Positions 7,641 to 58,459 of a DNA stretch of 64,000 bases are shown in pieces. Positions within the stretch are counted from its first letter, which is position 1, and every line of letters begins with the position of its first letter. The position numbers and the translations under genes are program-made. The stretch is from sequence record ON286973, one strand, 5' to 3'. This DNA comes from Escherichia phage A51.2. The notes beneath the pieces were generated by a model that was not told the origin of the DNA, did not search any database, and saw only the letters and a program-made list of their open reading frames with translations.

Positions 7641-9952
7641 TCACCAAGGTAATTAAAAGCAACGGATGTGAAGTGGCATTCGATCCAGAACGTTTAAATA
7701 AGGCAGCTATTTTCGGTGACGACGGTAACGGCAATTGGTCACATATTGCACTGGATGCATACAAACGACTGTATGATGGATGTACAACCAAAGAAGTTAA
7801 CCAAGCTATCATAGACTCCTGTGTTAGCCGTAAAGACGAAGCACATTCCCGTATGGCTGGTCGTGTTCTTATTGGTCAGATTTATAAAGAGGCTTTTGGA
7901 GGGTTTACAAAGATCCCTTCCTTACCATCATTTTACAACGACATGGTTGAGAAAGGGTATTGGGAGGATATGGGATATAGCTTTACCGAGCTAAACACTT
8001 TAGACGCTGTTATTGACCACAGTAAAGATCTCGGTTATGGCTATGCAGTCCTTAAACAGTTTCGCGACAAATACGGGATCAAGGATACTCTTAAAGACAC
8101 CTTGTTTGAATCTCCCCAGATGATGTTTATGGGGATAGCAATGGCTGTCATGAAGAATATGCCGAAAGAACGTCGTATCAACGATGTTGTAAAATTATAC
8201 ACTTATCTGTCCGACTTAAAGATCAATGCCCCGACACCGTACTTAAACGGGCTGCGCACAGGTAAGACAGGGTATGCATCTTGTTGTGTAATAAAAGCTG
8301 ACGATACAGCAAAATCTATTGGTGTGGCACGTGAAGTTGCGTACACAATGACGGTTAACCAAGCAGGTATCGGCTACTATTTATCATCAAGATCTGCAGG
8401 TGATGGTGTTCGCGGTAACACTATTAAACACATGGGTAAGATTCCATATTATCGAGGTATTGATGCTGGTGTTAAGGAGAACAGACAACAATCACGTGGC
8501 GGTTCTGCAACAGTATCATTCCTTGCACTGGACCCGCAGATTGATGAGCTAATCCGTTTGAGAAACCCTATGACTGTTGCTTCAAAAAGAATCAACACCA
8601 TGGACTACTCCATCGGTATTAATAGGTCGTTTATCAACCGTGTGGCTAAGAATTTAGATTGGATGCTTGTTTCTTATAAGCACGCTCCTCAACTGCATGA
8701 GGGTATCTTCACCATGTCTATGGAGGAGTTCGATGCAGAGGTTGAGCGTATTGCTAAAGATGACAGTATTCCTAAGACATGGATCCGGGCTAGAGATCTT
8801 GCTGTTGAGCTGATCACGCAGCGTACTGAGGTGGGAAGGCTGTACGTATACTGGACAGATGAGATGAATAGACATACACCTTTTAAAGATGTGATCTATT
8901 CAAGCAACCTGTGTGCAGAAATAGCCCTCCCGACAAAAGGCTATTCAGATATGCGTAATATCTTCAAGTACGATGTTGATGATGGTGAGGTTGCATTGTG
9001 CTTCCTGTCATCTCTTGTAGCTGGAAGGGTTACCCCAGAGGAGTATGAGGATGTTGCATACTACACGGTACTTATGATTGACAATGTTATGGAAATCATG
9101 ACATATCCGTATGAAAACATGGAGAGTACTGTTAAAAAACGCAGATCCATCGGGGTTGGCCTTACCAATGTTGCACATTTTATTGCCAGCCACAAGGTTA
9201 CTTACGGATCTCCTGAAAGTAAACAGCTTGTTCACGATCTTGCAGAACTTCACAGCTACAGCTTGCATAAGGCAAGTTTACGGTTGGCAAAAGAGCGTGG
9301 TGTCTGCGAGTGGATGTATAAAACAAAATATCCAGAAGGTTGGTTACCAATCGACACTTATAACAAAGAGGTCGATAGTGTGGTGAAAGATCCTTCTCTT
9401 AAACAGGATTGGGAAGGGTTACGTAAAGAAATCATTGAAAATGGTGGGCTACGTAATAGCGTTCTTGAAGCATATATGCCTAATGAAAGCTCTTCGCTGG
9501 CAACAAACACCACTAACGGGGTTTATCCTGTCCGTGAGCACATTATCTTTAAAAAGTCGCCACAAGGGCAGGTGCTGTTTATCGTTCCTGAATACGATGA
9601 GTTGAAAGAGTATTACACTTCGGCTTGGGACGTTGATACTAACGACATGATCGATATGTATGCTGTGATTCAAAAATTCACAGGTCAGGCAATCAGCGCG
9701 GATTTATACATAGACTACACCAAGTTGAAAGATGGTAAAATTTCAATGAAGGAGCAGCTAGGGTACCTTATCCGTGCCACTAAATTCGGGATGAAGACAT
9801 GGTATTATTTAAACTCTAGGGTTGGTGCTGGTGACTCCTTGGCAGAGGAACTTCATGCCAAGAAACAGGCTGAAGATGAAACCAGAAAGAACTATCCTTT
9901 GATTGCAGATAGTTCAGTTGAAGATCCGTATTGCGAAAGCTGTGCACTATAA
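7637..9952 (+). CDS. nrdA: ribonucleotide reductase class Ia large subunit
   Basis: N-terminal ATP-cone (VIKSNG..E.F), catalytic NLCAEIALP motif, 771 aa; TTG start after GGAGGA. Confidence 0.9.
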   Translation: MITKVIKSNGCEVAFDPERLNKAAIFGDDGNGNWSHIALDAYKRLYDGCTTKEVNQAIIDSCVSRKDEAHSRMAGRVLIGQIYKEAFGGFTKIPSLPSFYNDMVEKGYWEDMGYSFTELNTLDAVIDHSKDLGYGYAVLKQFRDKYGIKDTLKDTLFESPQMMFMGIAMAVMKNMPKERRINDVVKLYTYLSDLKINAPTPYLNGLRTGKTGYASCCVIKADDTAKSIGVAREVAYTMTVNQAGIGYYLSSRSAGDGVRGNTIKHMGKIPYYRGIDAGVKENRQQSRGGSATVSFLALDPQIDELIRLRNPMTVASKRINTMDYSIGINRSFINRVAKNLDWMLVSYKHAPQLHEGIFTMSMEEFDAEVERIAKDDSIPKTWIRARDLAVELITQRTEVGRLYVYWTDEMNRHTPFKDVIYSSNLCAEIALPTKGYSDMRNIFKYDVDDGEVALCFLSSLVAGRVTPEEYEDVAYYTVLMIDNVMEIMTYPYENMESTVKKRRSIGVGLTNVAHFIASHKVTYGSPESKQLVHDLAELHSYSLHKASLRLAKERGVCEWMYKTKYPEGWLPIDTYNKEVDSVVKDPSLKQDWEGLRKEIIENGGLRNSVLEAYMPNESSSLATNTTNGVYPVREHIIFKKSPQGQVLFIVPEYDELKEYYTSAWDVDTNDMIDMYAVIQKFTGQAISADLYIDYTKLKDGKISMKEQLGYLIRATKFGMKTWYYLNSRVGAGDSLAEELHAKKQAEDETRKNYPLIADSSVEDPYCESCAL

Positions 9953-14864: not shown

Positions 14865-15101
14865 ATGATAGGTGTCTGTGTAAAAGCTAACAGATGGTTT
14901 ACATTCGGTAAGGATTACGAAATTATCTTTCATTCGGACAGAGCCACAACAGTAGAAAGCGATGATGGGTGCCACTGGTTCGTTAGTTACCATGGTGATG
15001 GGTATTATAGATCTACTGATTCCAGAGGGGAAGAAGCTGTTTTCTTGGATAGAGCTTATTGTGGGCCTGAATATCCTTACCTAAAAGAGGATAAGGAATG
15101 A
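14865..15101 (+). CDS. hypothetical protein
   Basis: 78-aa ORF, RBS AGAGAGG; stop overlaps nrdG start. Confidence 0.4.
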   Translation: MIGVCVKANRWFTFGKDYEIIFHSDRATTVESDDGCHWFVSYHGDGYYRSTDSRGEEAVFLDRAYCGPEYPYLKEDKE

Positions 15102-17397: not shown

Positions 17398-18444
17398 ATG
17401 AATTTAACACCTCGCAGCACCATGGTACACGGCATGAAAGAAAAACAGAACGGTTTCGAACCTATGAGTAATAAAATGTTTGGTATGCCGGGCGGTATCA
17501 TGGAAACATACAGCTACCCAACACCTGTTGTTGACCACGTTCTTTATATCGACGATTTGGAAGACCTGCAGGATCATATGTCTCGTCTGCAGACGATCCG
17601 TATGGCTCAGCCGGAAGAAAGCATTCGGGTGATCATCAATAGCCCTGGTGGTTGCGTGCACATTGCAATGGCTTATCTACAGGCATTCCGCGAGTCTCAG
17701 GCAAGCGTTGTTGCACATGCTGAAGGGATGTGCTGCTCTGCGGGAACAATCTTATGGCTGGGTTGTAAAGAACGCACTGTGGCTCCGGACACAGAATTTA
17801 TGTTCCACTACTATCAAGGTGGCACTTATGGTAACGGTGTGAACATGAATACTCAGGTCAGCTACTGGAAAAAACGTTTTGAACGCCTGATCGAAAAATA
17901 CTACGGTGGGGTGCTGACAGAAGATGAGATCGCATCCATCACAGCTGGTGGTGAAGTGTGGTTGGACGGAGAGGAGCTGGCAGCTCGAACTGGAGCCATC
18001 ATTCTGGATGAAGGTAACATACAGCGCATCCAGAACGGACAAAAACCTAAAAAGCTTCTGGCAAAAGGTGATGAAGGCGTGTTAGGTGAAGCAGGTCTTC
18101 CTGAGATTCACCAGTGCACCTCTTTAGATGAGCTAGTTCATGCTGTTGAATCTGCGAAAGCGGTTGGTTCGAAAGGTGATGTTCACACTGTGTTCCTAAA
18201 TCTGCAGATGGAAAGTGGTGAGACCATTAAGATTGCCTTAGGTGAGATTACCTCAGAAGATCTGCAGCGATTCTCTGTCGTTGAACTTCAAGACATTCTG
18301 TCCCAATTGAAGACAACCCTGAACGGCGGTGAAGAGGTTAAGGTAAAAGATAAGACTCGCAAGCGTCTGGTGGACAATATTATTAAAACAGCAAAAGAGC
18401 TCAATGAAAAAATCCTGGGTGCAGGAATTGTCGAAGAAGCTTAA
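17398..18444 (+). CDS. ClpP-family serine peptidase with about 170-aa C-terminal extension
   Basis: VIINSPGG...CSAGT...MFHY matches ClpP/S14 signature with Ser and His positions; 348 aa. Confidence 0.6.
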   Translation: MNLTPRSTMVHGMKEKQNGFEPMSNKMFGMPGGIMETYSYPTPVVDHVLYIDDLEDLQDHMSRLQTIRMAQPEESIRVIINSPGGCVHIAMAYLQAFRESQASVVAHAEGMCCSAGTILWLGCKERTVAPDTEFMFHYYQGGTYGNGVNMNTQVSYWKKRFERLIEKYYGGVLTEDEIASITAGGEVWLDGEELAARTGAIILDEGNIQRIQNGQKPKKLLAKGDEGVLGEAGLPEIHQCTSLDELVHAVESAKAVGSKGDVHTVFLNLQMESGETIKIALGEITSEDLQRFSVVELQDILSQLKTTLNGGEEVKVKDKTRKRLVDNIIKTAKELNEKILGAGIVEEA

Positions 18445-19346: not shown

Positions 19347-19586
19347 ATGTACAAGTCATTTTCAATCTACTCAAGACAGTCGAAACACTACACAGAGATC
19401 CTGATCACTCAGAAAAAATCTGTGGAAGGTGAGTGGGAATATCACCATAAAATGTTGCGTCCAGACTGGGTTTTTGATAGACTTATTGCTATGATCCCTC
19501 TCGGAGAAGTATACCCTCTGACAGCCCATCGCGATGCTTGGGATTTAATTGATTACATAGATTCATTTAAGGAGCCTAGATTATGA
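19347..19586 (+). CDS. hypothetical protein
   Basis: ATG 19347 after AGAGGGGG. Confidence 0.4.
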   Translation: MYKSFSIYSRQSKHYTEILITQKKSVEGEWEYHHKMLRPDWVFDRLIAMIPLGEVYPLTAHRDAWDLIDYIDSFKEPRL

Positions 19587-19981
19587 AGATTGAGATTACT
19601 AAAGAAGGTAAGAAAGTGTCCGGCAACTATGCAACAGTAATTCGGGATTTAATGTTTGAAGCCACCAAGATCGGTACATCTAAAGTTGGTCAAACTGTTA
19701 GTGTGCAAAGTAATATCTCCACAGGAGAGAAGGTATTCATTGTGGTCAAAGGGCAGGATCCCGTGGAAGGAACAGTGGGCCGAGGTGGCTACCTGTGCAT
19801 TTCTGAAGAGCCGCGTATGTTAGTGGCTGACGCTACTATGGGTGGGAAACGTGTGTGCGAGGCGGATGAGGTAATGATTATCCAACCTGTTGATCCAGAT
19901 GACCCAGCAACTTGGGTGGTAGGAAATGAAATCTTCTCTTTAGAAGAGTTATCCTTCCCAGCACCGCGCTCTGTTCAGTAA
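19583..19981 (+). CDS. hypothetical protein (MKIEIT N-terminus)
   Basis: RBS AAGGAG; 132 aa. Confidence 0.45.
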   Translation: MKIEITKEGKKVSGNYATVIRDLMFEATKIGTSKVGQTVSVQSNISTGEKVFIVVKGQDPVEGTVGRGGYLCISEEPRMLVADATMGGKRVCEADEVMIIQPVDPDDPATWVVGNEIFSLEELSFPAPRSVQ

Positions 19982-20018
19982 TAATTTATCTTACCAGGGA
20001 CGGTAGGTAGGAGGTAGC

Positions 20019-20252
20019 ATGAAAGTTAAATTTCTTACAGATTTAGGGTACCCTTCCTTGGTTGACTGTGTTGGTAAAATTGTGGAAGCAAAACGGCTAT
20101 CTGCAAACGAGAATGTTGTCCTGGTTAAAGGGAAGGATTTACTAGCTGCAGGTGCAGAGTCTGGCAGGATCTCTCCTGATTATATGTATTACCTATCTTT
20201 AAGTAATCTGCCAGAGCGAGGCGGTAAAGGCCTTGAAGTTGTGGAGGAGTGA
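20019..20252 (+). CDS. small acidic protein, VEVVEE-tail family member A
   Basis: RBS AGGAGG; MKVKFL...KGKDLLAAGA...LEVVEE. Confidence 0.5.
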   Translation: MKVKFLTDLGYPSLVDCVGKIVEAKRLSANENVVLVKGKDLLAAGAESGRISPDYMYYLSLSNLPERGGKGLEVVEE

Positions 20253-20257
20253 CAGGT

Positions 20258-20782
20258 ATGCTTCTGATTAACTGGGAAGACCTCTATGGGGACAAAGACC
20301 CTGTTGCGTTTGTTGATCGTAGGTGGAGATACACTGAAGAACAACTGGCGGCAAAAAATTTAACTGCAAAACGCAGAAAGATCATCCAGTGCAAGTACAA
20401 ATACGCACAGTTTGCTGCAAAAGTGTCTCCACAAATCGAGAGCTTTGTGCTTAAATTGTATGACGAGTACCTCAAATTCAAATTGGATTTTGTGCAGGTG
20501 TACCGTGCACAGGTACGACCAGATACCAACATATGTAGATGGAAGGTTGTTTGTGAAGGTAAAGATTTGCCGCTCAGCTTGACAATTGAGTGGCGTTATG
20601 GGTATCATGAGTGTGGTCTGTATGATATTTGGGATGTCATTGTAGATCCTGCTAAGCATCTGAACACAGAGGAGCTGGAATATATCAATAAGGTTATTCT
20701 CGATATGTTTTTCAGCTACACACATGAAAACTCTGAGAAAGAACGGGATAATTTTCTTGACACCCTCAGCGACCATTTGTAG
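20258..20782 (+). CDS. hypothetical protein
   Basis: ATG 20258 after GGAGGAG. Confidence 0.45.
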   Translation: MLLINWEDLYGDKDPVAFVDRRWRYTEEQLAAKNLTAKRRKIIQCKYKYAQFAAKVSPQIESFVLKLYDEYLKFKLDFVQVYRAQVRPDTNICRWKVVCEGKDLPLSLTIEWRYGYHECGLYDIWDVIVDPAKHLNTEELEYINKVILDMFFSYTHENSEKERDNFLDTLSDHL

Positions 20783-20812
20783 TATACAATTTAACCTACA
20801 AAGGGAGGACCA

Positions 20813-21040
20813 ATGAGTATAAATGTTGTGCTAATAGGTTACCTGGTAATGTCCGTTATAACAGCGGTATTCTTGACAGGTGTATGCATCGTGTCCAGAC
20901 GAAGGGTGAAGTTTGATGATTTTATCACCATCATCACTGCTGCACCTTTTTGGCCTGTTGTTATCTTCATCGTAATAATGTGCCTAGTTGATTACTACAA
21001 GAATATCAGGAAGGAGAGTAGGGATGGAGACTGCACCTAA
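20813..21040 (+). CDS. small membrane protein (two predicted TM segments)
   Basis: RBS AAGGGAGG; hydrophobic stretches VVLIGYLVMSVITAVFL and FWPVVIFIVIMCLV. Confidence 0.45.
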   Translation: MSINVVLIGYLVMSVITAVFLTGVCIVSRRRVKFDDFITIITAAPFWPVVIFIVIMCLVDYYKNIRKESRDGDCT

Positions 21041-21176
21041 AACTATCTATACTGTTCTTAAAGAGATTGCGTTCTACGCAGATCTTAGCCAGGCACCTTT
21101 ATGGGAAAAGAGCATGTATTTAAAATGGTGCGTTAATTTAGGGAGACCTTCCAGTGTTTCAAGCCATGTTTATTGA
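21024..21176 (+). CDS. hypothetical small protein
   Basis: Internal ATG of ORF 20988..21176. Confidence 0.3.
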   Translation: METAPKTIYTVLKEIAFYADLSQAPLWEKSMYLKWCVNLGRPSSVSSHVY

Positions 21177-21259
21177 GATGCTATCTGGGATATTGTTACT
21201 GGTAGCCATCTTAGGTGGTGCAGTTCTGATGTATAACTATCTTGAAAAAGGAGACAGCA

Positions 21260-21445
21260 ATGGTAAAAAATAAATCTTTAGAGCAGGCTGAAAACCTTCT
21301 CCACGAGCTGGTAAAGGAGTGGAAAGTTGAATACTCAGATTTTAATGCACGAGAGGGTGAAGAATATTGGCCTACGGAGCGCTCAGAGGGCGAATGGTAT
21401 CAAGATTTTATAGAGTGGTTATATCAGACGTGCGATGAGGGGTGA
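21260..21445 (+). CDS. hypothetical protein
   Basis: ATG 21260 after AAGGAG. Confidence 0.4.
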   Translation: MVKNKSLEQAENLLHELVKEWKVEYSDFNAREGEEYWPTERSEGEWYQDFIEWLYQTCDEG

Positions 21446-21447
21446 CG

Positions 21448-21912
21448 ATGTTTGTTAAATATGTAAAAACGTGCCTCAACAGTCTTGGCAGAGAGCATTG
21501 GTACACCTTGCTTGAAAAAGGGGAAATTTTAACAAAATCTGGAAAGATAACTTTGATACCTCTTGATAGTAAAGGTAAAGACCCGTCACGACTTGTTATA
21601 GATGATTACGTTACAGGTGTGACGTTCGAGGTCTCTGTGGAGAGGTTAATACGCAGAGCTGGCGGCCCTTATGACCGAAGAGAGTATGTTTTCGATTCCG
21701 TTACAGAGATGGGGGAGCATCCGTCTTTAATGTTCAGGATGGTAATCAGAGATATGAGGTCATCTATAGATAGGATCGTAAAGGACATTAAGGAACCTTT
21801 TAGAGTAAAAGTTAAGAAGTTTTTCGATTCTAAGATTAACATACTCGCCGTTGCACTAGGTGTAGTTCAACTTCTGTTAATTTTGCACTATTTTGAACTA
21901 CTATTTAAGTAG
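21448..21912 (+). CDS. hypothetical protein with C-terminal hydrophobic segment
   Basis: ATG 21448 after GAGGGG. Confidence 0.4.
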   Translation: MFVKYVKTCLNSLGREHWYTLLEKGEILTKSGKITLIPLDSKGKDPSRLVIDDYVTGVTFEVSVERLIRRAGGPYDRREYVFDSVTEMGEHPSLMFRMVIRDMRSSIDRIVKDIKEPFRVKVKKFFDSKINILAVALGVVQLLLILHYFELLFK

Positions 21913-21974
21913 TAGTTGAGATATGGCACAAAGGATGTGCCATAGTGAAATAAACTAAGAAAGAGGTAGAGAGA

Positions 21975-22322
21975 ATGCCAAAGATTAAAACGTTATTACT
22001 GTGGGTAGCTGTTTTAGCTTTTATAGGGTACTGGACTTGGGAAACTGAATTAAAAGATATCGGATATACCAGTCTTGAGAGCAAGGCGTGCATTGGCATA
22101 ACCGATGCGTTCAGGCAAAATGCTATGGATCACGAATGTGTTGATGCAGATATAGATGAGAAACTGTCTAAGGACAAAGATTTTTACCATGGGCATGCTT
22201 TACTTGATAGTGGTGACACTGTAGAGTTCTGGTCGTGGTTTCGTGAAGATGGAACAATAAAAACAGCAGTAAAGATCTCTAACAAAGAGTTAATGCTGTT
22301 GCAGCAAAAGGAGGCTCAATGA
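21975..22322 (+). CDS. hypothetical protein with N-terminal TM/signal-like segment
   Basis: RBS AAGAGG; LLLWVAVLAFIGYW near N-terminus. Confidence 0.45.
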   Translation: MPKIKTLLLWVAVLAFIGYWTWETELKDIGYTSLESKACIGITDAFRQNAMDHECVDADIDEKLSKDKDFYHGHALLDSGDTVEFWSWFREDGTIKTAVKISNKELMLLQQKEAQ

Positions 22323-22606
22323 TCTGGATATCCTATGCTGATGGCACCATGCTGTATACTGCAGGTACCAGATATGAAGTTCAGGAGAACGATAAAAAAT
22401 TTATCGTAAAAACATTTGACAAGGACGACAACCTTTTGCTAGAATTGACTTACAAAGTTGGAGAGGTATCCAATATCCAGTTGGATTGTGGTCATAAAGA
22501 TAATCCACTCAAAAAACCTGGAGTAGGTAAGGCTTCAGAAGAACGTCTGTCTCGTATTGCAGAAAGCGTTTCTCCCCAAAAATCTAAGAAGAGGACTAGA
22601 AAATGA
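22319..22606 (+). CDS. hypothetical protein
   Basis: RBS AAAGGAGG, overlapping start/stop. Confidence 0.4.
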   Translation: MIWISYADGTMLYTAGTRYEVQENDKKFIVKTFDKDDNLLLELTYKVGEVSNIQLDCGHKDNPLKKPGVGKASEERLSRIAESVSPQKSKKRTRK

Positions 22607-22797
22607 AAAACTTACGTTTTAACACTTATTACTACAACACATTGAATGATTTGTATTATATTGTTCGAAGTAAAAGTCCTGAAACAGTCCTATTCTGCCG
22701 CGAACCTTTCAAAGGGGAGGAAGTAGAGTCTGAGATGAATGTTAGCCAGATCACCTCTTTGTTGCTCTCAGGCGCAATGGAAGAAGCAATATTCTAA
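22603..22797 (+). CDS. hypothetical protein
   Basis: RBS AAGAGGA. Confidence 0.4.
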   Translation: MKNLRFNTYYYNTLNDLYYIVRSKSPETVLFCREPFKGEEVESEMNVSQITSLLLSGAMEEAIF

Positions 22798-22815
22798 ACC
22801 AGGCAGGAGGGTTTT

Positions 22816-23001
22816 ATGAAGCACTATTGCCTGTCTGGTAGAATGGGTGCAGATTGTGATTGGGTTTTCTTAAAACTTGTCAGCATTCGAGAGTTCATCC
22901 CAGAGGAAGAGCAAGAAAGCGAGCTGATGTCATGGATCAACCATTACGGTAACACTTTTCGGCATGTTAAGGTAGAAGAGTTGCCAAGCGAGGCTGATTG
23001 A
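22816..23001 (+). CDS. hypothetical protein
   Basis: RBS AGGAGG. Confidence 0.4.
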   Translation: MKHYCLSGRMGADCDWVFLKLVSIREFIPEEEQESELMSWINHYGNTFRHVKVEELPSEAD

Positions 23002-23096
23002 CTATGATTGCATCAATATTAACGTTTATGGGTGGCGTGGCATTCGGATTCATTGTTTGCCTGTTTATAGTGATTATGTCTATGCGAGGCTGAATT

Positions 23097-23393
23097 ATGA
23101 AACTTTTTGAGTGGTTTAAAAAGTTTAAATATAAAGCTGTAGCCATCGTGCCGTGGTCCATTCAGTGGGTTGATGAAGGTGGTCTACCGATACCTGGTGA
23201 CAAAGATACTGGGTACTGGATTATGATGGAGAACGGGTTTGGAAAGCGAAAGTATACGTGCACAAACTCTACTCGATCTGCACTTAATAGAGTGCCTGGT
23301 TACAAACTTATGGTTGTGTGGAAAATGTCAGGCGTGCCTCCAGCCAATGCTCAATTTCTTACTGACAATCCGACCACGGTAGAGGGAGATTGA
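23097..23393 (+). CDS. hypothetical protein
   Basis: 98-aa ORF. Confidence 0.4.
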   Translation: MKLFEWFKKFKYKAVAIVPWSIQWVDEGGLPIPGDKDTGYWIMMENGFGKRKYTCTNSTRSALNRVPGYKLMVVWKMSGVPPANAQFLTDNPTTVEGD

Positions 23394-23395
23394 TA

Positions 23396-23677
23396 ATGAA
23401 AAAGATTAACAGTAGTGAAGTAGAGTTTAAACTTGTCGGAAAAGGCACTTACTGGGAAGTTCGTCAAAAGGTATATTTGTTCGGTCTTATTCCCTACTGG
23501 TCTAAATTCTACTGGGGAGCTAACGAGTTGGGAAGATACGCCACCAAATCAATGGCACTTATTGGTATAGCAGAGTACATTGCAGCCCGAGACAGGGTTG
23601 GAACCACTTATTACTACACTGCTGACGATATTCGTAACAGTGTTTACGTCCCACAACCACCTGATGGAGACCGTTGA
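23396..23677 (+). CDS. hypothetical protein
   Basis: ATG 23396 after AGAGGGAG. Confidence 0.4.
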   Translation: MKKINSSEVEFKLVGKGTYWEVRQKVYLFGLIPYWSKFYWGANELGRYATKSMALIGIAEYIAARDRVGTTYYYTADDIRNSVYVPQPPDGDR

Positions 23678-23901
23678 TGAAAGTTAAAGTTTTAGATTCA
23701 AGCTTCTATATTGGTCAGGAGCCTTTAGTAGGAAAAGTGTTTACTGCTGTCCCTAACGAAGATTACCCTGACCTTTTAAAAATAAAAGGAGCAGATCTTA
23801 TTGCCGCTGGTGCATCTCAGGAATGCTTTGACAGTCAGTGGACCTATAACTTTGCCCTAGGTGAGGATGTAGAGGTAGTGGAGGACGATCATGAAGGTTA
23901 A
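23677..23901 (+). CDS. small acidic protein, VEVVEE-tail family member B
   Basis: MKVKVLDS...KGADLIAAGA...DVEVVEDD. Confidence 0.5.
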   Translation: MKVKVLDSSFYIGQEPLVGKVFTAVPNEDYPDLLKIKGADLIAAGASQECFDSQWTYNFALGEDVEVVEDDHEG

Positions 23902-24145
23902 AATTCTTGATTCTAACGTCTACTTGGGACAATCCTTCCTGAATGGAAAGGTCGTTCCTGCGGTATACTTTGAAGGGTTGCCGTGGGATGATCCTGTGCG
24001 GCAACATCACAGTTATGTAGGCCACAACGTGGTGTTTATCTTGGGATCAGACCTGATCACCGCTGGTGCACCTGAATATTATTTCGGGGAAGAGTCCTAC
24101 TATGCCTTTGGGGTAGGGTCAGATGCAGATATTGTAGAGCTGTGA
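23891..24145 (+). CDS. small acidic protein, VEVVEE-tail family member C
   Basis: MKVKILDS...GSDLITAGA...DADIVEL; similar to B. Confidence 0.5.
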   Translation: MKVKILDSNVYLGQSFLNGKVVPAVYFEGLPWDDPVRQHHSYVGHNVVFILGSDLITAGAPEYYFGEESYYAFGVGSDADIVEL

Positions 24146-24157
24146 TGGGTAACCGTT

Positions 24158-24556
24158 GTGAAAAATAAACTGTTTAAAGTTACAATGAAAATTCGCGGGG
24201 CTTGGAGCGTAAAGCAAGGGCGTATTCCAGAATTTGAGAAAGACTTCTACGTAGTCTCCACCTCGGAGGAGGCTGCATGCTGGCAGGCTGGCTATGCCTA
24301 TGCAAGAACCTGGTACGAAGGATACCAGACTGGGGGCTATGACGGAGAAATTATCAGCAAGGGTGTAGAAGAAATTAATGTGTTGACAAGTGAAAAAGTT
24401 TTTGTTATAGTGCATCCAGATTCCAGAGTGAAGCATTACTGGAATGCCAGAACAAAAACTTGGACACCGTTTGCAGATTCTGCTACGCCACTTTTAAACC
24501 AGAAAGCTCTTGACTCTGCCCCAAGTTATGGGGTTGTTGAAGAAAAGCTAAACTGA
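24158..24556 (+). CDS. hypothetical protein, paralogue of 26368..26763
   Basis: Shares HP[DH]S..YW..K.WTP motif with the 26368 gene; GTG start. Confidence 0.45.
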   Translation: MKNKLFKVTMKIRGAWSVKQGRIPEFEKDFYVVSTSEEAACWQAGYAYARTWYEGYQTGGYDGEIISKGVEEINVLTSEKVFVIVHPDSRVKHYWNARTKTWTPFADSATPLLNQKALDSAPSYGVVEEKLN

Positions 24557-24573
24557 AACAGTGAGGTGTCACC

Positions 24574-24864
24574 ATGATGGATTTAATTCTAAATATTGAT
24601 AACGCAGGAGAGTTTAAAGACGATGGTGTAACAAGCATGGACAAACCCTGCTCTGCTAAGGTTGACTCAAAATGGACCTACAAGTTTGACGGAGAGATCT
24701 TCGCAAATGATGAGAAGGTTGTAGATGCTGCAGCCATTTTAAACGCTCTAGGGTACGACCCTGTGAATTCTTTGATCAAGGATCCTGTTGAGTTTGCAGA
24801 GTATGTTCGAAAAATGGCAGATCTTGCTGTGGATATTTTAAAAACTATCGACAACAAGCTGTAA
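24574..24864 (+). CDS. hypothetical protein
   Basis: RBS GTGAGGTG. Confidence 0.45.
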   Translation: MMDLILNIDNAGEFKDDGVTSMDKPCSAKVDSKWTYKFDGEIFANDEKVVDAAAILNALGYDPVNSLIKDPVEFAEYVRKMADLAVDILKTIDNKL

Positions 24865-24870
24865 AAACTG

Positions 24871-24899
24871 TTGACACAACGCTTCAGATTTAGTATCAT
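24871..24899 (+). promoter_or_regulatory. sigma70-like promoter (TTGACA-17-TATCAT) upstream of hpf homologue
   Basis: Consensus -35 with 17-bp spacer. Confidence 0.55.
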
Positions 24900-24948
24900 T
24901 GTTTTCAAAGAGAGATAGTTATTCCCTCTTCCTTAAAAGGAACACGTT

Positions 24949-25269
24949 ATGCAAATTGAAATCACTGGCAACAATGTAGAAATCACAGAAGGTATGGTAT
25001 CTTTTATTTCCCGCAAAATGTCCAAGCTGGAGCGTTTACATCCCTCTGTTAACTATGCACGTGTGAGTGTAAAAGTTGAAAATGATCACCAGGAAGTTAT
25101 GGCGTTCATTTTTGACAATTCTGGAAAAGAAGTTATTGCCAAGGCTAAAGGCAGTGATGCTTACGAGGCAACTGACCGTATGGTAGATGTTGCAGCACGT
25201 CAGCTGGCTAAATGCGGTGGAAAGAAAGGTAAGGGGAAAGGCAAAGTAAAGATTGACTTTGGAGAATGA
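24949..25269 (+). CDS. hpf: ribosome hibernation promoting factor / RaiA (YfiA) family protein
   Basis: MQIEITGNNVEITEGM...KLE...VKVE...DAYEATDRMVDVAARQLAK aligns closely with E. coli HPF/YfiA; basic Lys/Gly C-tail. Confidence 0.85.
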   Translation: MQIEITGNNVEITEGMVSFISRKMSKLERLHPSVNYARVSVKVENDHQEVMAFIFDNSGKEVIAKAKGSDAYEATDRMVDVAARQLAKCGGKKGKGKGKVKIDFGE

Positions 25270-25406
25270 GGTGCTACAATGGGTGTGATTAAGAAATTAG
25301 TCCCAAATGTAGAGATTGCATGCTTTGAAATTATGTTTGCAATCGCAGTTGTAGTTAATGTGTTAGGTTACGGCTATTAATATCAAATAATTGAGGAGAC
25401 CTCTAA

Positions 25407-25676
25407 ATGAAAATTAAATTATTCCAAACTGAGCTGGCAGACAAAAATTGTGGACTGGTTGAAGGCATGATTGTTGAAGCACAACCAGTGGACTATATGA
25501 AGGTGGTTCGTGATGCCCTAGGTGAAGGTTTTGATCTGATGGAGCCAGCTCTGCGAGAAGATGTTATCGAGATGGCTAAAAAGCACACACCTGAAGGTTT
25601 GGTGGTGTTTGTTGCACCGGGTAACGGAGAAGAGTTGATTGTAACTCCTGATGTGTATGAGATTGTAGAGGAATAA
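25407..25676 (+). CDS. small acidic protein, VEVVEE-tail family member D
   Basis: RBS GAGGAG; MKIKLF...C-terminus VYEIVEE. Confidence 0.5.
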   Translation: MKIKLFQTELADKNCGLVEGMIVEAQPVDYMKVVRDALGEGFDLMEPALREDVIEMAKKHTPEGLVVFVAPGNGEELIVTPDVYEIVEE

Positions 25677-25767
25677 TCCTGCTTGGATTAGCATACTTCC
25701 TCGCTAAGGAAGATTTGTAATTATTTGTGGGAAAGGAGTCCCAATCTCTTACCAGAGGTGATACTAT

Positions 25768-26031
25768 ATGATTGTTTATTTTAAAACTTCAGGTGGATAC
25801 CCTGATTCTCAAAGCTTGATCGGAAAAACGTGCACAGCATACTCACCTCTTGATGAGGAGGTAAGCGATATTTTACGAAATATGTATCGGATTGACCCCC
25901 AAGAAGCCTTTGATCAAAACCTTGTATTTGTCAAGGGCTCAGATATGAAGTCTTTGGGAGCATTCCCTGAAGCAGATGATGATGCCGTTTATTCGTTCAT
26001 GACTCCTTTTGAAGCTATGGTTGTTGGGTGA
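25768..26031 (+). CDS. small acidic protein, VEVVEE-tail family member E
   Basis: RBS AGAGGTG; KGSDMKSLGA core; C-terminus FEAMVVG. Confidence 0.5.
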   Translation: MIVYFKTSGGYPDSQSLIGKTCTAYSPLDEEVSDILRNMYRIDPQEAFDQNLVFVKGSDMKSLGAFPEADDDAVYSFMTPFEAMVVG

Positions 26032-26035
26032 TAAT

Positions 26036-26368
26036 ATGAAAGTACGCTTTATTGGTGAAACAATTCCTGTGCATCTCCGGTCGCCTGAGGATTCTGCAGA
26101 TCTTGCATCTCAAAAGGCGAGAGGTTATGATAAGAAAGTAACCTCAACCGATGTAGTGCTTGAGGCTACTAGTCTACCTGACCCTGCTGCATTCTTTAAT
26201 CATTATGGGTACTATTTCAGCAATCTGATGAATATCGGTGAGCTTGTGTTTATTAGTGGTGGAGAAATTGTTAGCAAGCTTGGCGGCGATCCGGATGTCT
26301 TTCATGAAACCTGTCCTTTTGCATTTGTGGTGGGTTCAGATGTGGAAGTTATTGAGGAGGTGCGGTAA
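26036..26368 (+). CDS. small acidic protein, VEVVEE-tail family member F
   Basis: MKVRFIGE...C-terminus SDVEVIEEVR; ATG 26036. Confidence 0.5.
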   Translation: MKVRFIGETIPVHLRSPEDSADLASQKARGYDKKVTSTDVVLEATSLPDPAAFFNHYGYYFSNLMNIGELVFISGGEIVSKLGGDPDVFHETCPFAFVVGSDVEVIEEVR

Positions 26369-26763
26369 TGGTAAGCCTATACCGTGTTGAGTATAGCTCA
26401 GATACTGTATACAACGTAAGAAGCAAAGATCGCAGCGACAGAGTGCAAGAAATGTATGTTCTTGCCGACAGTCCGTTATCTGCAGCGTTCAAGGCAGGGG
26501 CTCTTGCATCTCGTTGGAAATTTGAAGGCGGATCTTTCTATGAAGAAACCCTTGAAGATTCTGTTGTTATTTCTTCTGTAGAGGTTTCAGATGACTACGA
26601 AGGGAAAAAGTTCGTAATGCGGCACCCACACAGCAACATTGCGTACTACTGGGATGTTCTGAACAACGAGTGGACCCCAGATCTTCAGAAGGCTACTGTG
26701 CTAACACCGTTTTTGGCAGATAAGTTCCCACCAGAAGGTAATTTATCCGCACTGTTTCAGTAA
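26368..26763 (+). CDS. hypothetical protein, paralogue of 24158..24556
   Basis: RBS GGAGGTG; shares HPHS..YW..WTP motif. Confidence 0.5.
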   Translation: MVSLYRVEYSSDTVYNVRSKDRSDRVQEMYVLADSPLSAAFKAGALASRWKFEGGSFYEETLEDSVVISSVEVSDDYEGKKFVMRHPHSNIAYYWDVLNNEWTPDLQKATVLTPFLADKFPPEGNLSALFQ

Positions 26764-26781
26764 TTTTCTTGCACACAGGTG

Positions 26782-26812
26782 TTGACAACACCAACCCTGT
26801 GTGAAATAATAC
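26782..26812 (+). promoter_or_regulatory. possible promoter (TTGACA inside CACACAGG/CCTGTGTG inverted repeat)
   Basis: -35 consensus flanked by 8-bp inverted repeat; -10 ambiguous. Confidence 0.35.
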
Positions 26813-26842
26813 CTTCATCTTAACAAGACGGGAGACTGATTG

Positions 26843-27100
26843 ATGAAGATTAAACTGAAAAACCTTGAAATGGCAGAGATTCAGGATGGTGTTGATTTCC
26901 GCTCTAAAGATGGTGACATCTTGGAGGTAAATCTTCCAACCTACGAGCTGATTAAAGGTTTTGGCAACGTTCAGGAAGAGGATATTCCAGAAACTCTTAT
27001 GATGTTGATTCTTGACGGAACTGTGTTTGTAGGTGAAGGTGAGAACGCTATTGCAATCCCCGGCCATTTTTATGAAGTAGTTGACGAAGAGGTGCTGTAA
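26843..27100 (+). CDS. small acidic protein, VEVVEE-tail family member G
   Basis: MKIKLKNL...C-terminus YEVVDEEVL. Confidence 0.5.
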   Translation: MKIKLKNLEMAEIQDGVDFRSKDGDILEVNLPTYELIKGFGNVQEEDIPETLMMLILDGTVFVGEGENAIAIPGHFYEVVDEEVL

Positions 27101-27451
27101 ATGAAAGTAGAAATTACTGGTTTTGATGTTAGTGTGGTTCCGGAAGATATTTTAGCTAACTTACCGGAAGGTTTTGGTAACGGTGTTGTGGTGGATGCTG
27201 TTCCTCCTACCAAAGACATTCTGCTGCAGTATGGTGTAGCAGAGGAAGATGTCGATAAAGTTCTTACAATGATGGCAATCGATCGTGTTGTCGTTGTTAA
27301 AGGTCTCGATAATTTTGAGAGTGATCCTCTGATTATTCGCGGAGATGACTACAAAATCATCGATAATGAAGGCCAAGAGTTCTATGAGCCTTGTGCAGAA
27401 GATATTCTTAACTTATTACTGGAAGCAGGCACCGAAGAGGAGGACGAATAA
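27101..27451 (+). CDS. hypothetical acidic protein (MKVEITG N-terminus)
   Basis: 116-aa ORF, C-terminus EEEDE. Confidence 0.45.
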   Translation: MKVEITGFDVSVVPEDILANLPEGFGNGVVVDAVPPTKDILLQYGVAEEDVDKVLTMMAIDRVVVVKGLDNFESDPLIIRGDDYKIIDNEGQEFYEPCAEDILNLLLEAGTEEEDE

Positions 27452-27780
27452 TGAAGATTGACCCGTTACTGAAGGCTCGTGCAGAAAAAGCGTACACCAT
27501 TAAGCTGACCAACCTGGTTCCTACTTGTCATCCAGATGTAGGTTGGCCCGAAGGTTTGGTGGAGGGAACTGTAACAGCTGCATACCTTCCTAACATCAAA
27601 TACCTTATGGAAATCTTGGAGCTGGATGAGGAAACGGCAGAAGAGTTACAGTTGGACATGAAACAAAGTGGGACTCTGGTTATTCACGGGTGGTATAATA
27701 CTAAAGATGCAGAAGACCCTCTGGTAACTTCTAATCTGGCATATGAAATCTTAGGACCTTTGAACCTGGAGGAAGACTAA
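27451..27780 (+). CDS. hypothetical acidic protein
   Basis: 109-aa ORF, overlapping start/stop. Confidence 0.45.
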   Translation: MKIDPLLKARAEKAYTIKLTNLVPTCHPDVGWPEGLVEGTVTAAYLPNIKYLMEILELDEETAEELQLDMKQSGTLVIHGWYNTKDAEDPLVTSNLAYEILGPLNLEED

Positions 27781-28067
27781 TGAAAGATTTGGTTAAGATT
27801 AAGATTAAAGATACCAATGGAGAACTCAGCCATTTTGGAATTAAGGATGGTGACGAGCTGATCGCACACTTGCCTACTAAGGAGGTTGTAAGCAAAGCAG
27901 TTGCCGGAGAAGAAGCTGCAATGCAGGCTGCAGGTGTGGATGAAAACTATGTAGCTATGTGCATGTGCCGAGATCAGGTTGTTCTGTATAAAGCGTATCG
28001 ACCAAACGGAGCCACGGAGTGGCTTGTATTCCGACCCGAAGGATATGAAATCTTAGAGGCACTATGA
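27780..28067 (+). CDS. hypothetical protein
   Basis: 95-aa ORF. Confidence 0.45.
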   Translation: MKDLVKIKIKDTNGELSHFGIKDGDELIAHLPTKEVVSKAVAGEEAAMQAAGVDENYVAMCMCRDQVVLYKAYRPNGATEWLVFRPEGYEILEAL

Positions 28068-28156
28068 TAAATCTTGCCAAGGTTGCAACGGCACTGTTAA
28101 TTATTTGCTGGTCTGTAACCTTAACACTGTGTCTTGTATTTCAGTGAGGTGCTTGT

Positions 28157-29161: not shown

Positions 29162-29166
29162 TGACA

Positions 29167-29193
29167 AAGAGGGGGGCTTAGGCCCCTCTTTTT
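29167..29193 (+). terminator. intrinsic terminator (AAGAGGGG...CCCCTCTT plus T tract)
   Basis: 8-bp stem followed by TTT. Confidence 0.7.
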
Positions 29194-50602: not shown

Positions 50603-50966
50603 TCATCAGATCTGCCATAGCGTCACCCACGAAGAGAACAACCACATCGTTGACAGCGTCAGCATCATCTTTGTTGACGTTGCTGAATTTAGGACACACA
50701 GCAATGATCATATAGACACCGTTACCAACTTGAACTGTCCGTGTGGTGCACATCATGGCGGTATTTGTGCCTTCTTTGAAGGCGAAGCCTTGAAGACGCT
50801 CCTCTAAAGTGTTACCGGTAGATTTCAGAAGCGCCAGCTCGTCCAAGGCATAGATGATATCTCCGGAAGTTAGTGTTGCCTTGCCATCAGACACCATAAT
50901 CACTCCATCAGCACCATCAAGCTTAGAGGCTTCAAAGATATCGATATCCCAAATATTTTTCATCAC
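50574..50966 (-). CDS. hypothetical acidic protein
   Basis: 130-aa ORF. Confidence 0.4.
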   Translation of the reverse strand: MMKNIWDIDIFEASKLDGADGVIMVSDGKATLTSGDIIYALDELALLKSTGNTLEERLQGFAFKEGTNTAMMCTTRTVQVGNGVYMIIAVCPKFSNVNKDDADAVNDVVVLFVGDAMADLMNAGEAANED

Positions 50967-51235
50967 GCTTCCTCATCATCTAAGTAATCATCAAGAGAGG
51001 TGAAGATTTCACCGAAGTATTCTAAGATTTCTAGCTCACGTGTGGTGCAGCAAACATAATCGCCTTGGTCGTCCTTAATAGTGGCCTCTTTACCCAGAAT
51101 ATCTACTTCAAGTTCATCGTTCAACAGGACGGCCCCTGTGTAAACTTTGTCAGCTGTGCAGTCCCGAAAAGCAGAGTCCTTCTCCAGATAGTCTGGCTTA
51201 ACCTTGGCTTTAATTCGTTGATATTGTTTGGTCAT
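50963..51235 (-). CDS. hypothetical protein, paralogue of 51299..51553
   Basis: ATG 51235 after AAAGGGGA; shares KP.Y.E.D.AF.DCT and KDD.GD...CT motifs. Confidence 0.4.
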   Translation of the reverse strand: MTKQYQRIKAKVKPDYLEKDSAFRDCTADKVYTGAVLLNDELEVDILGKEATIKDDQGDYVCCTTRELEILEYFGEIFTSLDDYLDDEEA

Positions 51236-51298
51236 TGCTGTGGTCCCCTTTCGTTTTGATAGGGCCATTATAGTAGGCCCTATGACTGTTGTCAAGCA

Positions 51299-51553
51299 TT
51301 AATGTTCAGGTTTTACAAAAACTACTTCATTAACAGTGCACCAGACAGAGTCTCCTTCATCATCTTTAAAGGTAAGGCACTGTGCTGAGTTTTCCAACTC
51401 ATCAAGCTCTTCCTGTGATAGAGGAGCTCCTTCTTCCAGAAGGGCTTTTACCAAAGGGTTCTCACAAAACTCTGCTTCATAAATTGCACCGATTGTGCAA
51501 TCTTTAAAAGCTCGGTCATTTTCAACGCATTCTGGCTTCAGAGTAATTTTCAT
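51299..51553 (-). CDS. hypothetical protein, paralogue of 50963..51235
   Basis: 84-aa ORF, RBS AAGGAGA. Confidence 0.45.
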   Translation of the reverse strand: MKITLKPECVENDRAFKDCTIGAIYEAEFCENPLVKALLEEGAPLSQEELDELENSAQCLTFKDDEGDSVWCTVNEVVFVKPEH

Positions 51554-52028: not shown

Positions 52029-52206
52029 GAGTTGTGTTGTTCACTGCACCGCAGTAAATGGAGTATCCCAGCCCATTAGAGTGCAGAAACCACGGCGTGC
52101 CGAAATTATCTTTCACGTAGACATCACCGTTGTTTGTAAAGGGCCAATATTCTTCACCAAGGGTAAAATACCTATTCATACCTTCAGCAAGATACTTTAC
52201 TTTCAT
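52012..52206 (-). CDS. hypothetical protein, three-member paralogue family
   Basis: Shares (F/Y)F..G..Y......KD..G..W(Y/F)...... pattern with next two genes. Confidence 0.4.
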   Translation of the reverse strand: MKVKYLAEGMNRYFTLGEEYWPFTNNGDVYVKDNFGTPWFLHSNGLGYSIYCGAVNNTTLAEFV

Positions 52207-52430
52207 AGGTCCTCTTCAACAACTACAAACTTGGCAAGCAAAGTGGTTCCGTAGATATGATACTCACCGTTTGCCAGGTGAGAGATATACCAGGCAACCC
52301 CTTCCTCGTCTTTAATCATTTTGTTTGCACGAGCTTTATCGTAATAAACCTCGTAGGTCTTTCCTTCTTTAAAGAATGACAGGTCTGTCATCTTTTCTTC
52401 TACAAAGGTAGCTTTAACCAAAGTCGTCAT
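52203..52430 (-). CDS. hypothetical protein, three-member paralogue family
   Basis: FFKEGKTYEV...IKDEEGVAWYI. Confidence 0.4.
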   Translation of the reverse strand: MTTLVKATFVEEKMTDLSFFKEGKTYEVYYDKARANKMIKDEEGVAWYISHLANGEYHIYGTTLLAKFVVVEEDL

Positions 52431-52711
52431 TGATCGGTCTCCTTCTTGTTAAGTCTGAATACTGCAATAATAGCATTCCCAAGGTGCAGTGTCAAGTCAT
52501 TTCCAAGATACCACAGCATCCCACGGTCATCTTTAATGAAAGGGTAACAATCTGGTGCCTTCCAGACATTGTACACTTTCCCAACCTGAAAGAAATCAGG
52601 CCCTGTTGGGATTTTGGTGCCAGGCCACACTTGAGATACCTGAACACACTCCACCTGCATAATAACAGGAATGGTCATGGATGTAAATGTTTTTGTTGGC
52701 TCTACTACCAT
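52427..52711 (-). CDS. hypothetical protein, three-member paralogue family
   Basis: ATG 52711 after AAGAGGAG; FFQVGKVYNV...IKDDRGMLWYL. Confidence 0.45.
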   Translation of the reverse strand: MVVEPTKTFTSMTIPVIMQVECVQVSQVWPGTKIPTGPDFFQVGKVYNVWKAPDCYPFIKDDRGMLWYLGNDLTLHLGNAIIAVFRLNKKETDQ

Positions 52712-52760
52712 AAAAGTCTCCTCTTTGCTCAACAGCACCTCCCTGTGCTGATAGTTTACA

Positions 52761-57675: not shown

Positions 57676-58459
57676 TAATTCTGCTCCTTACTACAGGCTC
57701 GTTTGCTAGGAATACGGCTTTTGCCCAGCCACGTGGTGTGAGGCTTCGAATCATCTTCGTTCTTGCACTCTTTCCACCCAGCTTGGCGTGTTGCATGGAA
57801 TACCCGCTAACCGCGTCAACTATTTGCGGGACAGGTTTTGTGGCTGGGATTATAAATCCATTACCTATCCAGCCGCAAGTTATTTTTGGATAGGCATCAC
57901 GTGGAGCTATAAATTCAGGAAACCATGGGTTTACATCATCTTCCGGTAAATACCCGCCATAATCCGAAGGGTGAAAACGGTAATCAGGTTTGCGCCACAG
58001 TGTGGACATAACACCCACAGGATTCTCTACATGCCACGGGCAATCGTAAATCTCTCCCAGCTCTTCCGCAACCCGAGCATCCTTTACAGCATTAATTTGG
58101 ATCATGGGGTCCTTAGCCAGTTTTTTCTTAAAATGTGCAGCACCTGATACCGCTAAATGCGTGCACGGAGGAAATGCAAGAATAAAATCTGGAGCCGGAT
58201 ACATGCAAAAAGTTTCCTGAGGGAACCACGGGTCAATCCAATAGTCCACATAGTGAATGTTGGGATGATCGGTGATCACCTCTGCATAACTGCCGTGATC
58301 AGCGCCTTCTGCATTAAAGCACAGGCACAGGTACCCAGCTTTTGCCCAGTCAATGACTGCACCACCAGACCCGTCAAATAGACTCCACACAACACCTTTG
58401 TGGTAGTGTTCTTTGTAGATAAATTTCAATTTACTGTCTCCTAATGCAAAAAGCCCCAC
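57665..58459 (-). CDS. minimal C5-cytosine methyltransferase-like protein
   Basis: 264 aa with motif I LFDGSGG, motif IV FPPC, motif VI-like VENP in canonical order; no obvious target-recognition domain. Confidence 0.5.
   Translation of the reverse strand: MGLFALGDSKLKFIYKEHYHKGVVWSLFDGSGGAVIDWAKAGYLCLCFNAEGADHGSYAEVITDHPNIHYVDYWIDPWFPQETFCMYPAPDFILAFPPCTHLAVSGAAHFKKKLAKDPMIQINAVKDARVAEELGEIYDCPWHVENPVGVMSTLWRKPDYRFHPSDYGGYLPEDDVNPWFPEFIAPRDAYPKITCGWIGNGFIIPATKPVPQIVDAVSGYSMQHAKLGGKSARTKMIRSLTPRGWAKAVFLANEPVVRSRINGK

Follow-up and report, generated by a model that had tools for sequence, protein, structure and literature searches.

In a 64,000-nucleotide stretch of the genome of Escherichia phage A51.2 (sequence record ON286973; hereafter the window, whose positions are counted from its first letter), we identify ten plus-strand genes, lying between positions 20,019 and 28,067, that probably constitute one old superfamily of small (74–116 amino acids), mostly acidic, single-domain proteins with a predicted SH3-like barrel fold. 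By sequence the genes fall into two families, A and B, and we propose that their products are putative early, non-enzymatic binders. We consider this reading as a whole to be probably correct. Its structural and evolutionary part is held with high confidence, and its functional part, putative early stoichiometric protein binding, is put forward tentatively. An initial annotation of the region had described a single, diversifying family of at least seven genes. The family is larger and older than first noted, its predicted fold is a generic one, and it appears to have expanded by old duplication. The ten members, named throughout by their first position and given here with their counterparts among the open reading frames (ORFs) of phage rV5 and the outcome of profile comparisons (leave-one-out hidden Markov models (HMMs), hhalign, BLASTP and matches to the PHROGs database), are the following.

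20019..20252, plus strand: family A member, rV5 ORF127; 77 amino acids; phrog_5009 E 8e-36; leave-one-out HMM E 7.7e-6.
23677..23901, plus strand: family A member, rV5 ORF140; 74 amino acids; chosen for the family A model.
23891..24145, plus strand: family A member, rV5 ORF141; 84 amino acids; its start overlaps the end of 23677; phrog_5009 E 4e-32; leave-one-out HMM E 3.4e-14.
25768..26031, plus strand: family A member, rV5 ORF147; 87 amino acids; insert between strands 2 and 3; leave-one-out HMM E 3.3e-6; hhalign against 23891 P 4.7e-7.
26036..26368, plus strand: family A member, rV5 ORF148; 110 amino acids; leave-one-out HMM E 1.7e-5; hhalign against 23891 P 7.4e-8.
25407..25676, plus strand: family B member, rV5 ORF146; 89 amino acids; leave-one-out HMM E 4.6e-4 (rank 5 of 474); hhalign against 26843 P 4e-4.
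26843..27100, plus strand: family B member, rV5 ORF150; 85 amino acids; chosen for the family B model.
27101..27451, plus strand: family B member, rV5 ORF151; 116 amino acids; net charge -22; leave-one-out HMM E 7.6e-8; hhalign against 26843 P 7.6e-8.
27451..27780, plus strand: family B member, rV5 ORF152; 109 amino acids; leave-one-out HMM E 4.3e-4; hhalign against 27101 P 1.3e-6.
27780..28067, plus strand: family B member, rV5 ORF153/154 (split); 95 amino acids; leave-one-out HMM E 7.9e-6; BLASTP against 26843 E 0.006.

The seven ORFs of the initial annotation (20019, 23677, 23891, 25407, 25768, 26036 and 26843) were all confirmed at their starts and with the lengths given above. Each has a Shine-Dalgarno site 5–9 nucleotides 5' of its start codon, and their counterparts in phages slur16 and rV5 are annotated coding sequences for hypothetical proteins. 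Contrary to what had been stated, they are not all adjacent: 20019 is separated from 23677 by 3.4 kb and ∼13 unrelated genes. The description of the proteins as small and acidic holds for six of the seven (isoelectric points 4.05–4.9), whereas 20019 is only mildly acidic (isoelectric point 5.4). Across the whole set, nine of the ten members have isoelectric points of 4.05–4.9 and net charges of -5 to -22, with 20019 as the exception, and Asp plus Glu account for 20–25% of the residues in 23677, 26843 and 27101. In the rV5 reference record (DQ832317, positions 9026–9296) the orthologue of 27780 is split into ORF153 and ORF154. The gene is uninterrupted in the window, in phages FV3 and Aya and in L005, a divergent metagenomic relative, so we attribute the split either to a frameshift or to an error of pyrosequencing.

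Pairwise BLASTP, leave-one-out HMMs and an all-against-all hhalign comparison of 33 neighbouring genes agree on the assignment of 20019, 23677, 23891, 25768 and 26036 to family A and of 25407, 26843, 27101, 27451 and 27780 to family B. When the leave-one-out HMMs were run against the 474 window ORFs of at least 40 amino acids, every member came out at rank 5, behind the four training members and above all non-members (E-values are 3e-14 to 2e-5 for family A and 8e-8 to 5e-4 for family B; the best non-member has an E-value of at least 0.14). The weakest sequence link inside family B is that of 25407. What had been taken for one family of seven is, by sequence, a set of five A and two B members (cross-family HMM E > 0.5), from which the B members 27101, 27451 and 27780 had been overlooked.

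The motifs that had been used to define the group fared unevenly. The start MK[VI]K[FVIL] is exact in five of the seven genes first listed, but 25768 begins MIVYF and 26036 begins MKVRF. The hydrophobic-acidic tail is carried by six of the seven and is weak in 25768 (FEAMVVG). The proposed core V.VKG.DL[IL]AAGA is exact in no member, and the literal string AAGA occurs in two members only: 20019 (VLVKGKDLLAAGA) fits the pattern except for a K at the wildcard position, and 23677 (LKIKGADLIAAGA) deviates in the first three residues. A relaxed core, [VI].[VI].G.[DE][LIM]...G[AG], is found in all five family A members. Both terminal motifs occur together in just 5 of the 474 window ORFs, each of them inside the cluster, and of the nine ORFs that carry the C-terminal motif, eight belong to the families. 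The shared termini of the cluster genes are therefore well beyond chance.

Four other genes of the region (19583, 28576, 29217 and 30552) were considered as additional members and ruled out (hhalign P at least 0.004, HMM E > 1). A 96-amino acid ORF at 24574–24864 (plus strand) contains a 29-column local match (…SKWTYKFDGE…) to the strand 4 region of 23677 (hhalign P 2.6e-4), and may represent the remnant of a family A gene joined to unrelated sequence.

We calculated AlphaFold2 models for one member of each family. The family A model (23677, using a 35-sequence alignment) has a predicted local distance difference test score (pLDDT) of 92.5 and a predicted template modelling score (pTM) of 0.80, and contains strands at residues 2–5, 21–23, 33–37, 56–61 and 65–69, and a short helix (residues 38–43) that corresponds to the G-x-D-L-I-x-A-G-A motif. 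The family B model (26843, using the five paralogues) has a pLDDT of 84 and a pTM of 0.70, and its strands flank two helices at residues 34–58. The models predict five antiparallel strands arranged as a small barrel, with SH3, KOW or PsaE domains as the best structural neighbours, and the A and B proteins are thus predicted to be generic SH3-like small β-barrels. The closest known fold is the SH3-like small β-barrel class that comprises SH3 domains, PsaE, the KOW domains of Spt5/NusG and ribosomal protein L24. A Foldseek search against predicted viral structures returned many small proteins of enterobacterial phages that share the fold (template modelling (TM) scores are 0.7–0.87), among them proteins of CM1, CS01, Merlin, Sf20 and RB49, none of which is functionally characterised. 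The CM1 orthologue of 25768 is match number 2 in BFVD for the family A model (TM score 0.79).

The MKVK N-terminus forms strand 1 in the AlphaFold2 models, and the C-terminal [Y/V/D]-[E/Y]-[V/I]-[V/I]-E sequence forms strand 5. In an SH3-like topology these two strands would adjoin and pair with each other, and such pairing would account for the joint conservation of the two termini. Paralogues differ chiefly by insertions of 0–45 residues between strands 2 and 3; in 26036 this insertion is accompanied by a second, smaller one that follows strand 1. The strand 2–3 insertions would sit at the equivalent of the n-Src loop, beside the usual SH3 ligand groove.

The conserved tail had been suggested to act as a common docking motif. 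Our models do not agree with this: in both of them the tail forms the final barrel strand, predicted with high confidence (the strand block has a pLDDT of 92–94), and only the last 3–5 residues fall to a pLDDT of ∼54 and are predicted to be disordered. As barrel strand 5, the tail would therefore be structured and not a free docking peptide. The codons of the tail point to a second contribution. Seven of the ten genes end 0–5 nucleotides short of the next start or overlap it, and in these seven the last codons harbour the next gene's Shine-Dalgarno site (GAG GAG and GAG GTN types, for example GTG GAG GAG, GAG GAG GTG, GAA GAG GTG, GAG GAG GAC and CTG GAG GAA). The remaining three members have a 12–91-nucleotide spacer and no abutting gene, and still end in ADIVEL, YEIVEE and YEILEAL. 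In L005, a spacer with a Shine-Dalgarno site of its own stands behind the genes orthologous to 26843, 27101 and 27451; the terminal acidic extension is gone from the orthologues of 27101 and 27451, and only a short DEDQ end is left in that of 26843. In the L005 orthologue of 25407, the -VEE end is encoded by GAA GAA, which is not Shine-Dalgarno-like. Because the spacer-followed members and this last orthologue keep it, the hydrophobic-acidic strand is a property of the protein itself. Translational coupling and gene packing largely account for the additional Glu and Asp residues at the very end, as GAG-GAG and GAG-GTN double as the downstream Shine-Dalgarno site. Neither cause favours a free docking peptide. 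A ClpP-like protease encoded upstream (17398–18444, plus strand) has a long C-terminal extension ending in ...ILGAGIVEEA, which resembles the family tail together with an AGA motif; this likeness may be coincidental.

We compared the two families using deep profiles (28 sequences for A and 10 for B, some of them orthologues from the divergent relative). hhalign produced a collinear 68-column alignment with a P value of 1.3e-3 and a score of 22.8, compared with 8.2 ± 1.6 for column-shuffled profiles (maximum 13.8; none of 200 shuffles reached 22.8) and 10.2 for a reversed control. The alignment pairs strand 1 with strand 1, the GKVVxA segment of A with GxIxxA of B, insert position with insert position, VFIKG with VVV, and tail with tail. 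The inserts of the A members 23891, 25768 and 26036 are located at the same place as the helices of family B. On the strength of these profiles we regard A and B, with moderate confidence, as probably belonging to one old superfamily.

The genes behave as core genes of their phage group. The window comes from an rV5-like myophage of the genus Vequintavirus. Its region 19500–28100 shares 99.9% identity with Escherichia phages slur16 and slur12 and is 80–99% identical to ∼120 other rV5-like Vequintavirus records; this 8.6-kb region is at least 80% covered in 114 of 121 records. A simple tblastn search found A and B members in Vequintavirus only, in 117–118 records, with identities of at least 84% (84–100%). 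The ratio of nonsynonymous to synonymous substitution rates (dN/dS), calculated against FV3 and Aya, is 0.03–0.25 for all ten members, the same range as for neighbouring genes, with 0.05–0.11 for 20019. The metagenomic relative (L005/L006) is divergent (PhoH is 74% and ClpP 69% identical) and has the same gene order. Its L005 sequence contains one positional orthologue for each of the ten members, with identities of 34–83%, compared with 29–91% for non-family neighbours. The idea of a fast-diverging, diversifying family is not supported by this one-to-one orthology, by the identity of orthologues in ∼117 genomes or by their low dN/dS. Instead, these comparisons show the ten members to be old, singly conserved paralogues under purifying selection, whose origin predates the split from the divergent sister lineage.

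Three non-family neighbours (20258–20782, 22603–22797 and 23097–23393) share only 51–68% identity between FV3, rV5 and Aya, which are otherwise 90–99% identical; allele replacement therefore occurs in this region, and spares the A and B genes. Eighteen GenBank records (MG0656xx) named 'Campylobacter phage', with C. jejuni as host, are 96–100% identical to this E. coli rV5-like region, which looks like contamination or mislabelling.

Outside Vequintavirus, homologues are rare and occur in one or two copies within the accessory small-ORF arrays of phages and prophages. A profile scan of 1.84 billion representative proteins with family A returned 24 matches, and the true ones are all 63–107 amino acids long and share the same motif pattern. 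Two giant adhesin-like proteins, P0041 (4388 amino acids, with YDG and MBG domains) and P0042 (3624 amino acids), were rejected as repeat-driven false positives, because their score (E 1e-7) is the sum of 5–6 weak matches, 2–16 bits each, of a repeated NVTF(I/L)SGxDIILAG β-helix motif. A word-indexed protein search recovers close orthologues only. The lambdoid prophage protein P0031 is 46% identical to 20019, and this copy is found singly between the Q antiterminator and holin genes of the lambdoid phage MagusPhagus and of prophages; among 5,426 complete E. coli genomes, 13 contain a copy of the lambdoid type. A Proteus phage carries two tandem copies within a run of small ORFs, and in one IMG/VR contig a copy adjoins apparent recombination genes. 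Searches with single distant members yielded one real locus (L008) and one spurious locus (L007, an antisense fragment in a GC-rich phage). A ∼260-amino acid protein of the window (57665–58459, minus strand) is 54–55% identical to a replication/Nin-region ORF of lambdoid prophages (L002, 2709–3503; L003, 3187–3879). As those prophages also carry a family A homologue, two very different phage types share two genes.

The initial annotation had not recognised the family, and the curated libraries are likewise silent: sequence searches of Pfam, NCBIfam, PADLOC and the Protein Data Bank (PDB) revealed no relative of the ten proteins. PADLOC gave no match at E ≤ 0.1 for any of them, Pfam gave no family at E ≤ 1 for any A member, and no KOW, LSM, Hfq or SH3 match was found in Pfam for any member. 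Sub-threshold Pfam matches of B members to NepR, SycN and LRAT (E 0.07–0.27) were dismissed. In PHROGs, the proteins of the window match over their full length (E 1e-32 to 1e-76), always to families of unknown function: phrog_5009, 13367, 13920 and 13661 for family A, and phrog_11868, 12359, 12155, 12457 and 12794 for family B. For phrog_5009 itself, the E-values are 8e-36 for 20019, 2e-38 for 23677 and 4e-32 for 23891; 25768 matches weakly (1e-4), 26036 goes to phrog_13661, and 21 of 22 diverse A-type proteins match the family. PHROGs thus spreads the ten genes over nine families, for which it records neither function nor fold nor paralogy; the connection among these families, the predicted SH3-like fold and the A–B relationship come from the present analysis.

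What these proteins may do is suggested by their position and composition. Upstream of the cluster and on the same strand lie genes for ribonucleotide reductases, ThyX, PhoH, the ClpP-like protease and a DNA methyltransferase, and in the rV5 genome these genes and the small genes have been placed in one non-late transcription unit, genes 82–163 (PMC3606486). Paralogue families go unmentioned in the rV5 genome paper (PMC3606486), and our literature searches turned up neither a transcriptome nor a functional study of these genes. Two promoter matches and a homologue of a ribosome hibernation factor are located within the cluster.

24871..24899, plus strand: σ70-type promoter match; 11 of 12 consensus positions; annotated P144 in rV5; precedes the HPF/RaiA homologue.
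24949–25269, plus strand: homologue of the ribosome hibernation factor HPF/RaiA, rV5 ORF144; PF02482 E 4e-15; Lys/Gly-rich tail.
26782..26810, plus strand: σ70-type promoter match, TTGACA-17-AATAAT with TG; 11 of 12 consensus positions; the equivalent is annotated P150 in rV5.

The second promoter match precedes the run of four B genes. The HPF/RaiA homologue sits mid-cluster among the family members with its own σ70-type promoter match. The P144 and P150 matches, together with the place of the genes in the non-late unit, which they share with the nucleotide-metabolism genes, indicate early or middle expression. The host σ70 RNA polymerase would transcribe the genes from promoters inside this unit, and the proteins would be non-virion: one tryptic-peptide string from each of six of the ten members was looked for in the rV5 virion mass-spectrometry table and was absent, gp133 being the only protein of the region listed there. 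In a 22-sequence alignment of family A, the invariant or near-invariant positions are M, G, Y and F only, which argues against an enzyme, and the strong acidity of nine of the ten members argues against direct nucleic-acid binding. We propose that, with no catalysis involved, each protein might bind one-to-one to a conserved host or phage protein early in infection, with the barrel as scaffold and the loops and inserts giving each paralogue its own target.

Several observations weigh against this reading. The homology between A and B hangs on a profile P value of ∼1e-3, and with shallow profiles hhalign found no link between the families (0.9% probability), in line with the cross-family HMM result. 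The termini supply much of the A–B score, yet they are also shaped by translation signals (AAA as second codon, Shine-Dalgarno overlap). The family B model was built on five sequences only. The region contains 37 promoter matches compared with 29.4 ± 6.1 in shuffled sequence, so that their total is not above expectation, and absence from the virion table is a weak negative for proteins this small.

The functional alternative that survives best holds that the ten paralogues are an anti-defence arsenal, each neutralising a different host immune protein, possibly via an acidic surface that mimics DNA. The proteins have properties expected of such factors: they are small, acidic (isoelectric points of 4.05–4.9 in nine of ten, charges down to -22) and probably early, they are encoded in a multi-copy cluster within a run of small non-structural ORFs, and their homologues elsewhere reside in accessory small-ORF arrays such as the lambdoid Q-to-holin region. 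There are also precedents for phage SH3-like modules that bind and block a host defence protein. Enterococcal phage Orf65, which is acidic and partly SH3-like, inhibits type IV restriction (PMC11322646), and Nip of Bacillus phage phi3T, an SH3-like-domain protein, blocks SpbK (PMC11984713). Compared by description, Orf65 is similarly small and ∼21% acidic, close to the Asp plus Glu content of 23677, 26843 and 27101. However, Orf65 has two domains and Nip is a 279-amino acid protein with an HU-like dimerisation domain, unlike the single-domain proteins of the window, and both are encoded by single genes rather than multi-copy ones, in phages of Gram-positive hosts.

Patchy presence or raised dN/dS is usual in counter-defence genes. 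Neither is seen here, where all ten genes are core, syntenic and under purifying selection. T7 Ocr, ArdA and T4 Arn are also small, very acidic early phage proteins, but they form helical or elongated dimers, and we looked for sequence or fold similarity to them and found none; nor was there a match to any characterised phage or anti-defence protein. DNA-mimic anti-restriction proteins would protect a phage from restriction-modification, whereas Vequintavirinae were found to be exceptionally susceptible to restriction-modification and often hit by abortive-infection systems in the BASEL study (PMC8594841). An anti-defence arsenal is thus unlikely in our view; given the core-gene behaviour of the family and the reported sensitivity of Vequintavirinae (PMC8594841), host takeover or regulation is the likelier role.

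A different objection concerns the superfamily itself: A and B could be unrelated, and their common termini convergent by-products of translation signals and of the generic needs of small β proteins. The failure of cross-family HMMs and shallow profiles to connect the families would fit such convergence, as would the frequency of MK- starts in non-family genes of the region, the coincidence of seven of the ten tails with the next gene's Shine-Dalgarno site, and the E, D or G-rich ends of other tightly packed genes nearby. Yet collinearity holds over the full span of the deep-profile alignment, whose score lies well above the shuffle maximum, and the A inserts and B helices are found at an identical point between the same two strands. 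Moreover, the tail is retained where no gene abuts and where, in the L005 orthologue of 25407, its codons are not Shine-Dalgarno-like. We therefore judge independent origins of A and B to be rather improbable. A third possibility likens the proteins to KOW, Sm or L24-type barrels: they would bind to RNA, DNA or the ribosome and, together with the HPF/RaiA homologue encoded between them, reprogramme host translation. We consider this very improbable, as nine of the ten are strongly acidic, Pfam KOW, LSM and Hfq are unmatched, and the HPF linkage is positional only.

The cluster and its surroundings contain three further features and a number of other duplicated small genes.

24158..24556, plus strand: first copy of paralogue pair C; not a family member; BLASTP against 26368–26763 E 1.2e-8; follows a pair of A genes.
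26368..26763, plus strand: second copy of paralogue pair C; hhalign P 1.6e-52 with the 24158 profile; follows the second pair of A genes.
29166..29191, either strand: bidirectional terminator-like hairpin; 9-bp GC-rich stem with a T run on both strands.

Pair C corresponds to rV5 ORF142 and ORF149, and both of its copies match phrog_7379, an annotation without function. The order A-A-C thus occurs twice (23677/23891/24158 and 25768/26036/26368), hinting at an old block duplication. In L005 an unrelated gene takes the place of the first C copy. The hairpin closes the plus-strand run of small ORFs, a rho-independent terminator is annotated at the corresponding position of rV5, and GC skew flips near 30 kb. 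Additional small paralogue pairs are found among 50963–51295, 51299–51553, 52203–52430 and 52427–52801 (all minus strand) and 14865–15101 (plus strand), with BLASTP E-values of 8e-9, 3e-4 and 9e-4 and sequences that look rich in β-strands. The phage therefore holds several small duplicated families.

Large phages commonly contain uncharacterised small proteins of the SH3-like type as well as expanded sets of paralogues, and in this respect our gain is incremental: the family is real but fairly ordinary for uncharacterised phage genes. Nevertheless, ten 'hypothetical' genes (∼5% of the gene count) are reduced to one predicted fold and two related families, the idea of a shared docking peptide is removed as wrong, and the genes emerge as conserved core genes, neither junk nor arms-race cargo. 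Phages of the rV5 type belong to the E. coli phages that are isolated most frequently, they are candidates for use in therapy and biocontrol, and most of their early genes are unannotated; the ten small soluble proteins now provide a defined, tractable set for pull-down or toxicity screens. A bolder reading, which we consider speculative and on balance doubtful, is that the ten proteins are a repertoire of natural monobodies, in which one SH3-like scaffold had its strand 2–3 loop or insert re-tailored ten times, so that each copy would bind and disable a different conserved host protein while the host is taken over. The scaffold would then occasionally have been passed as a single copy to temperate phages. 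If this were true, the ten targets would represent the set of host vulnerabilities used by a very common group of E. coli phages.

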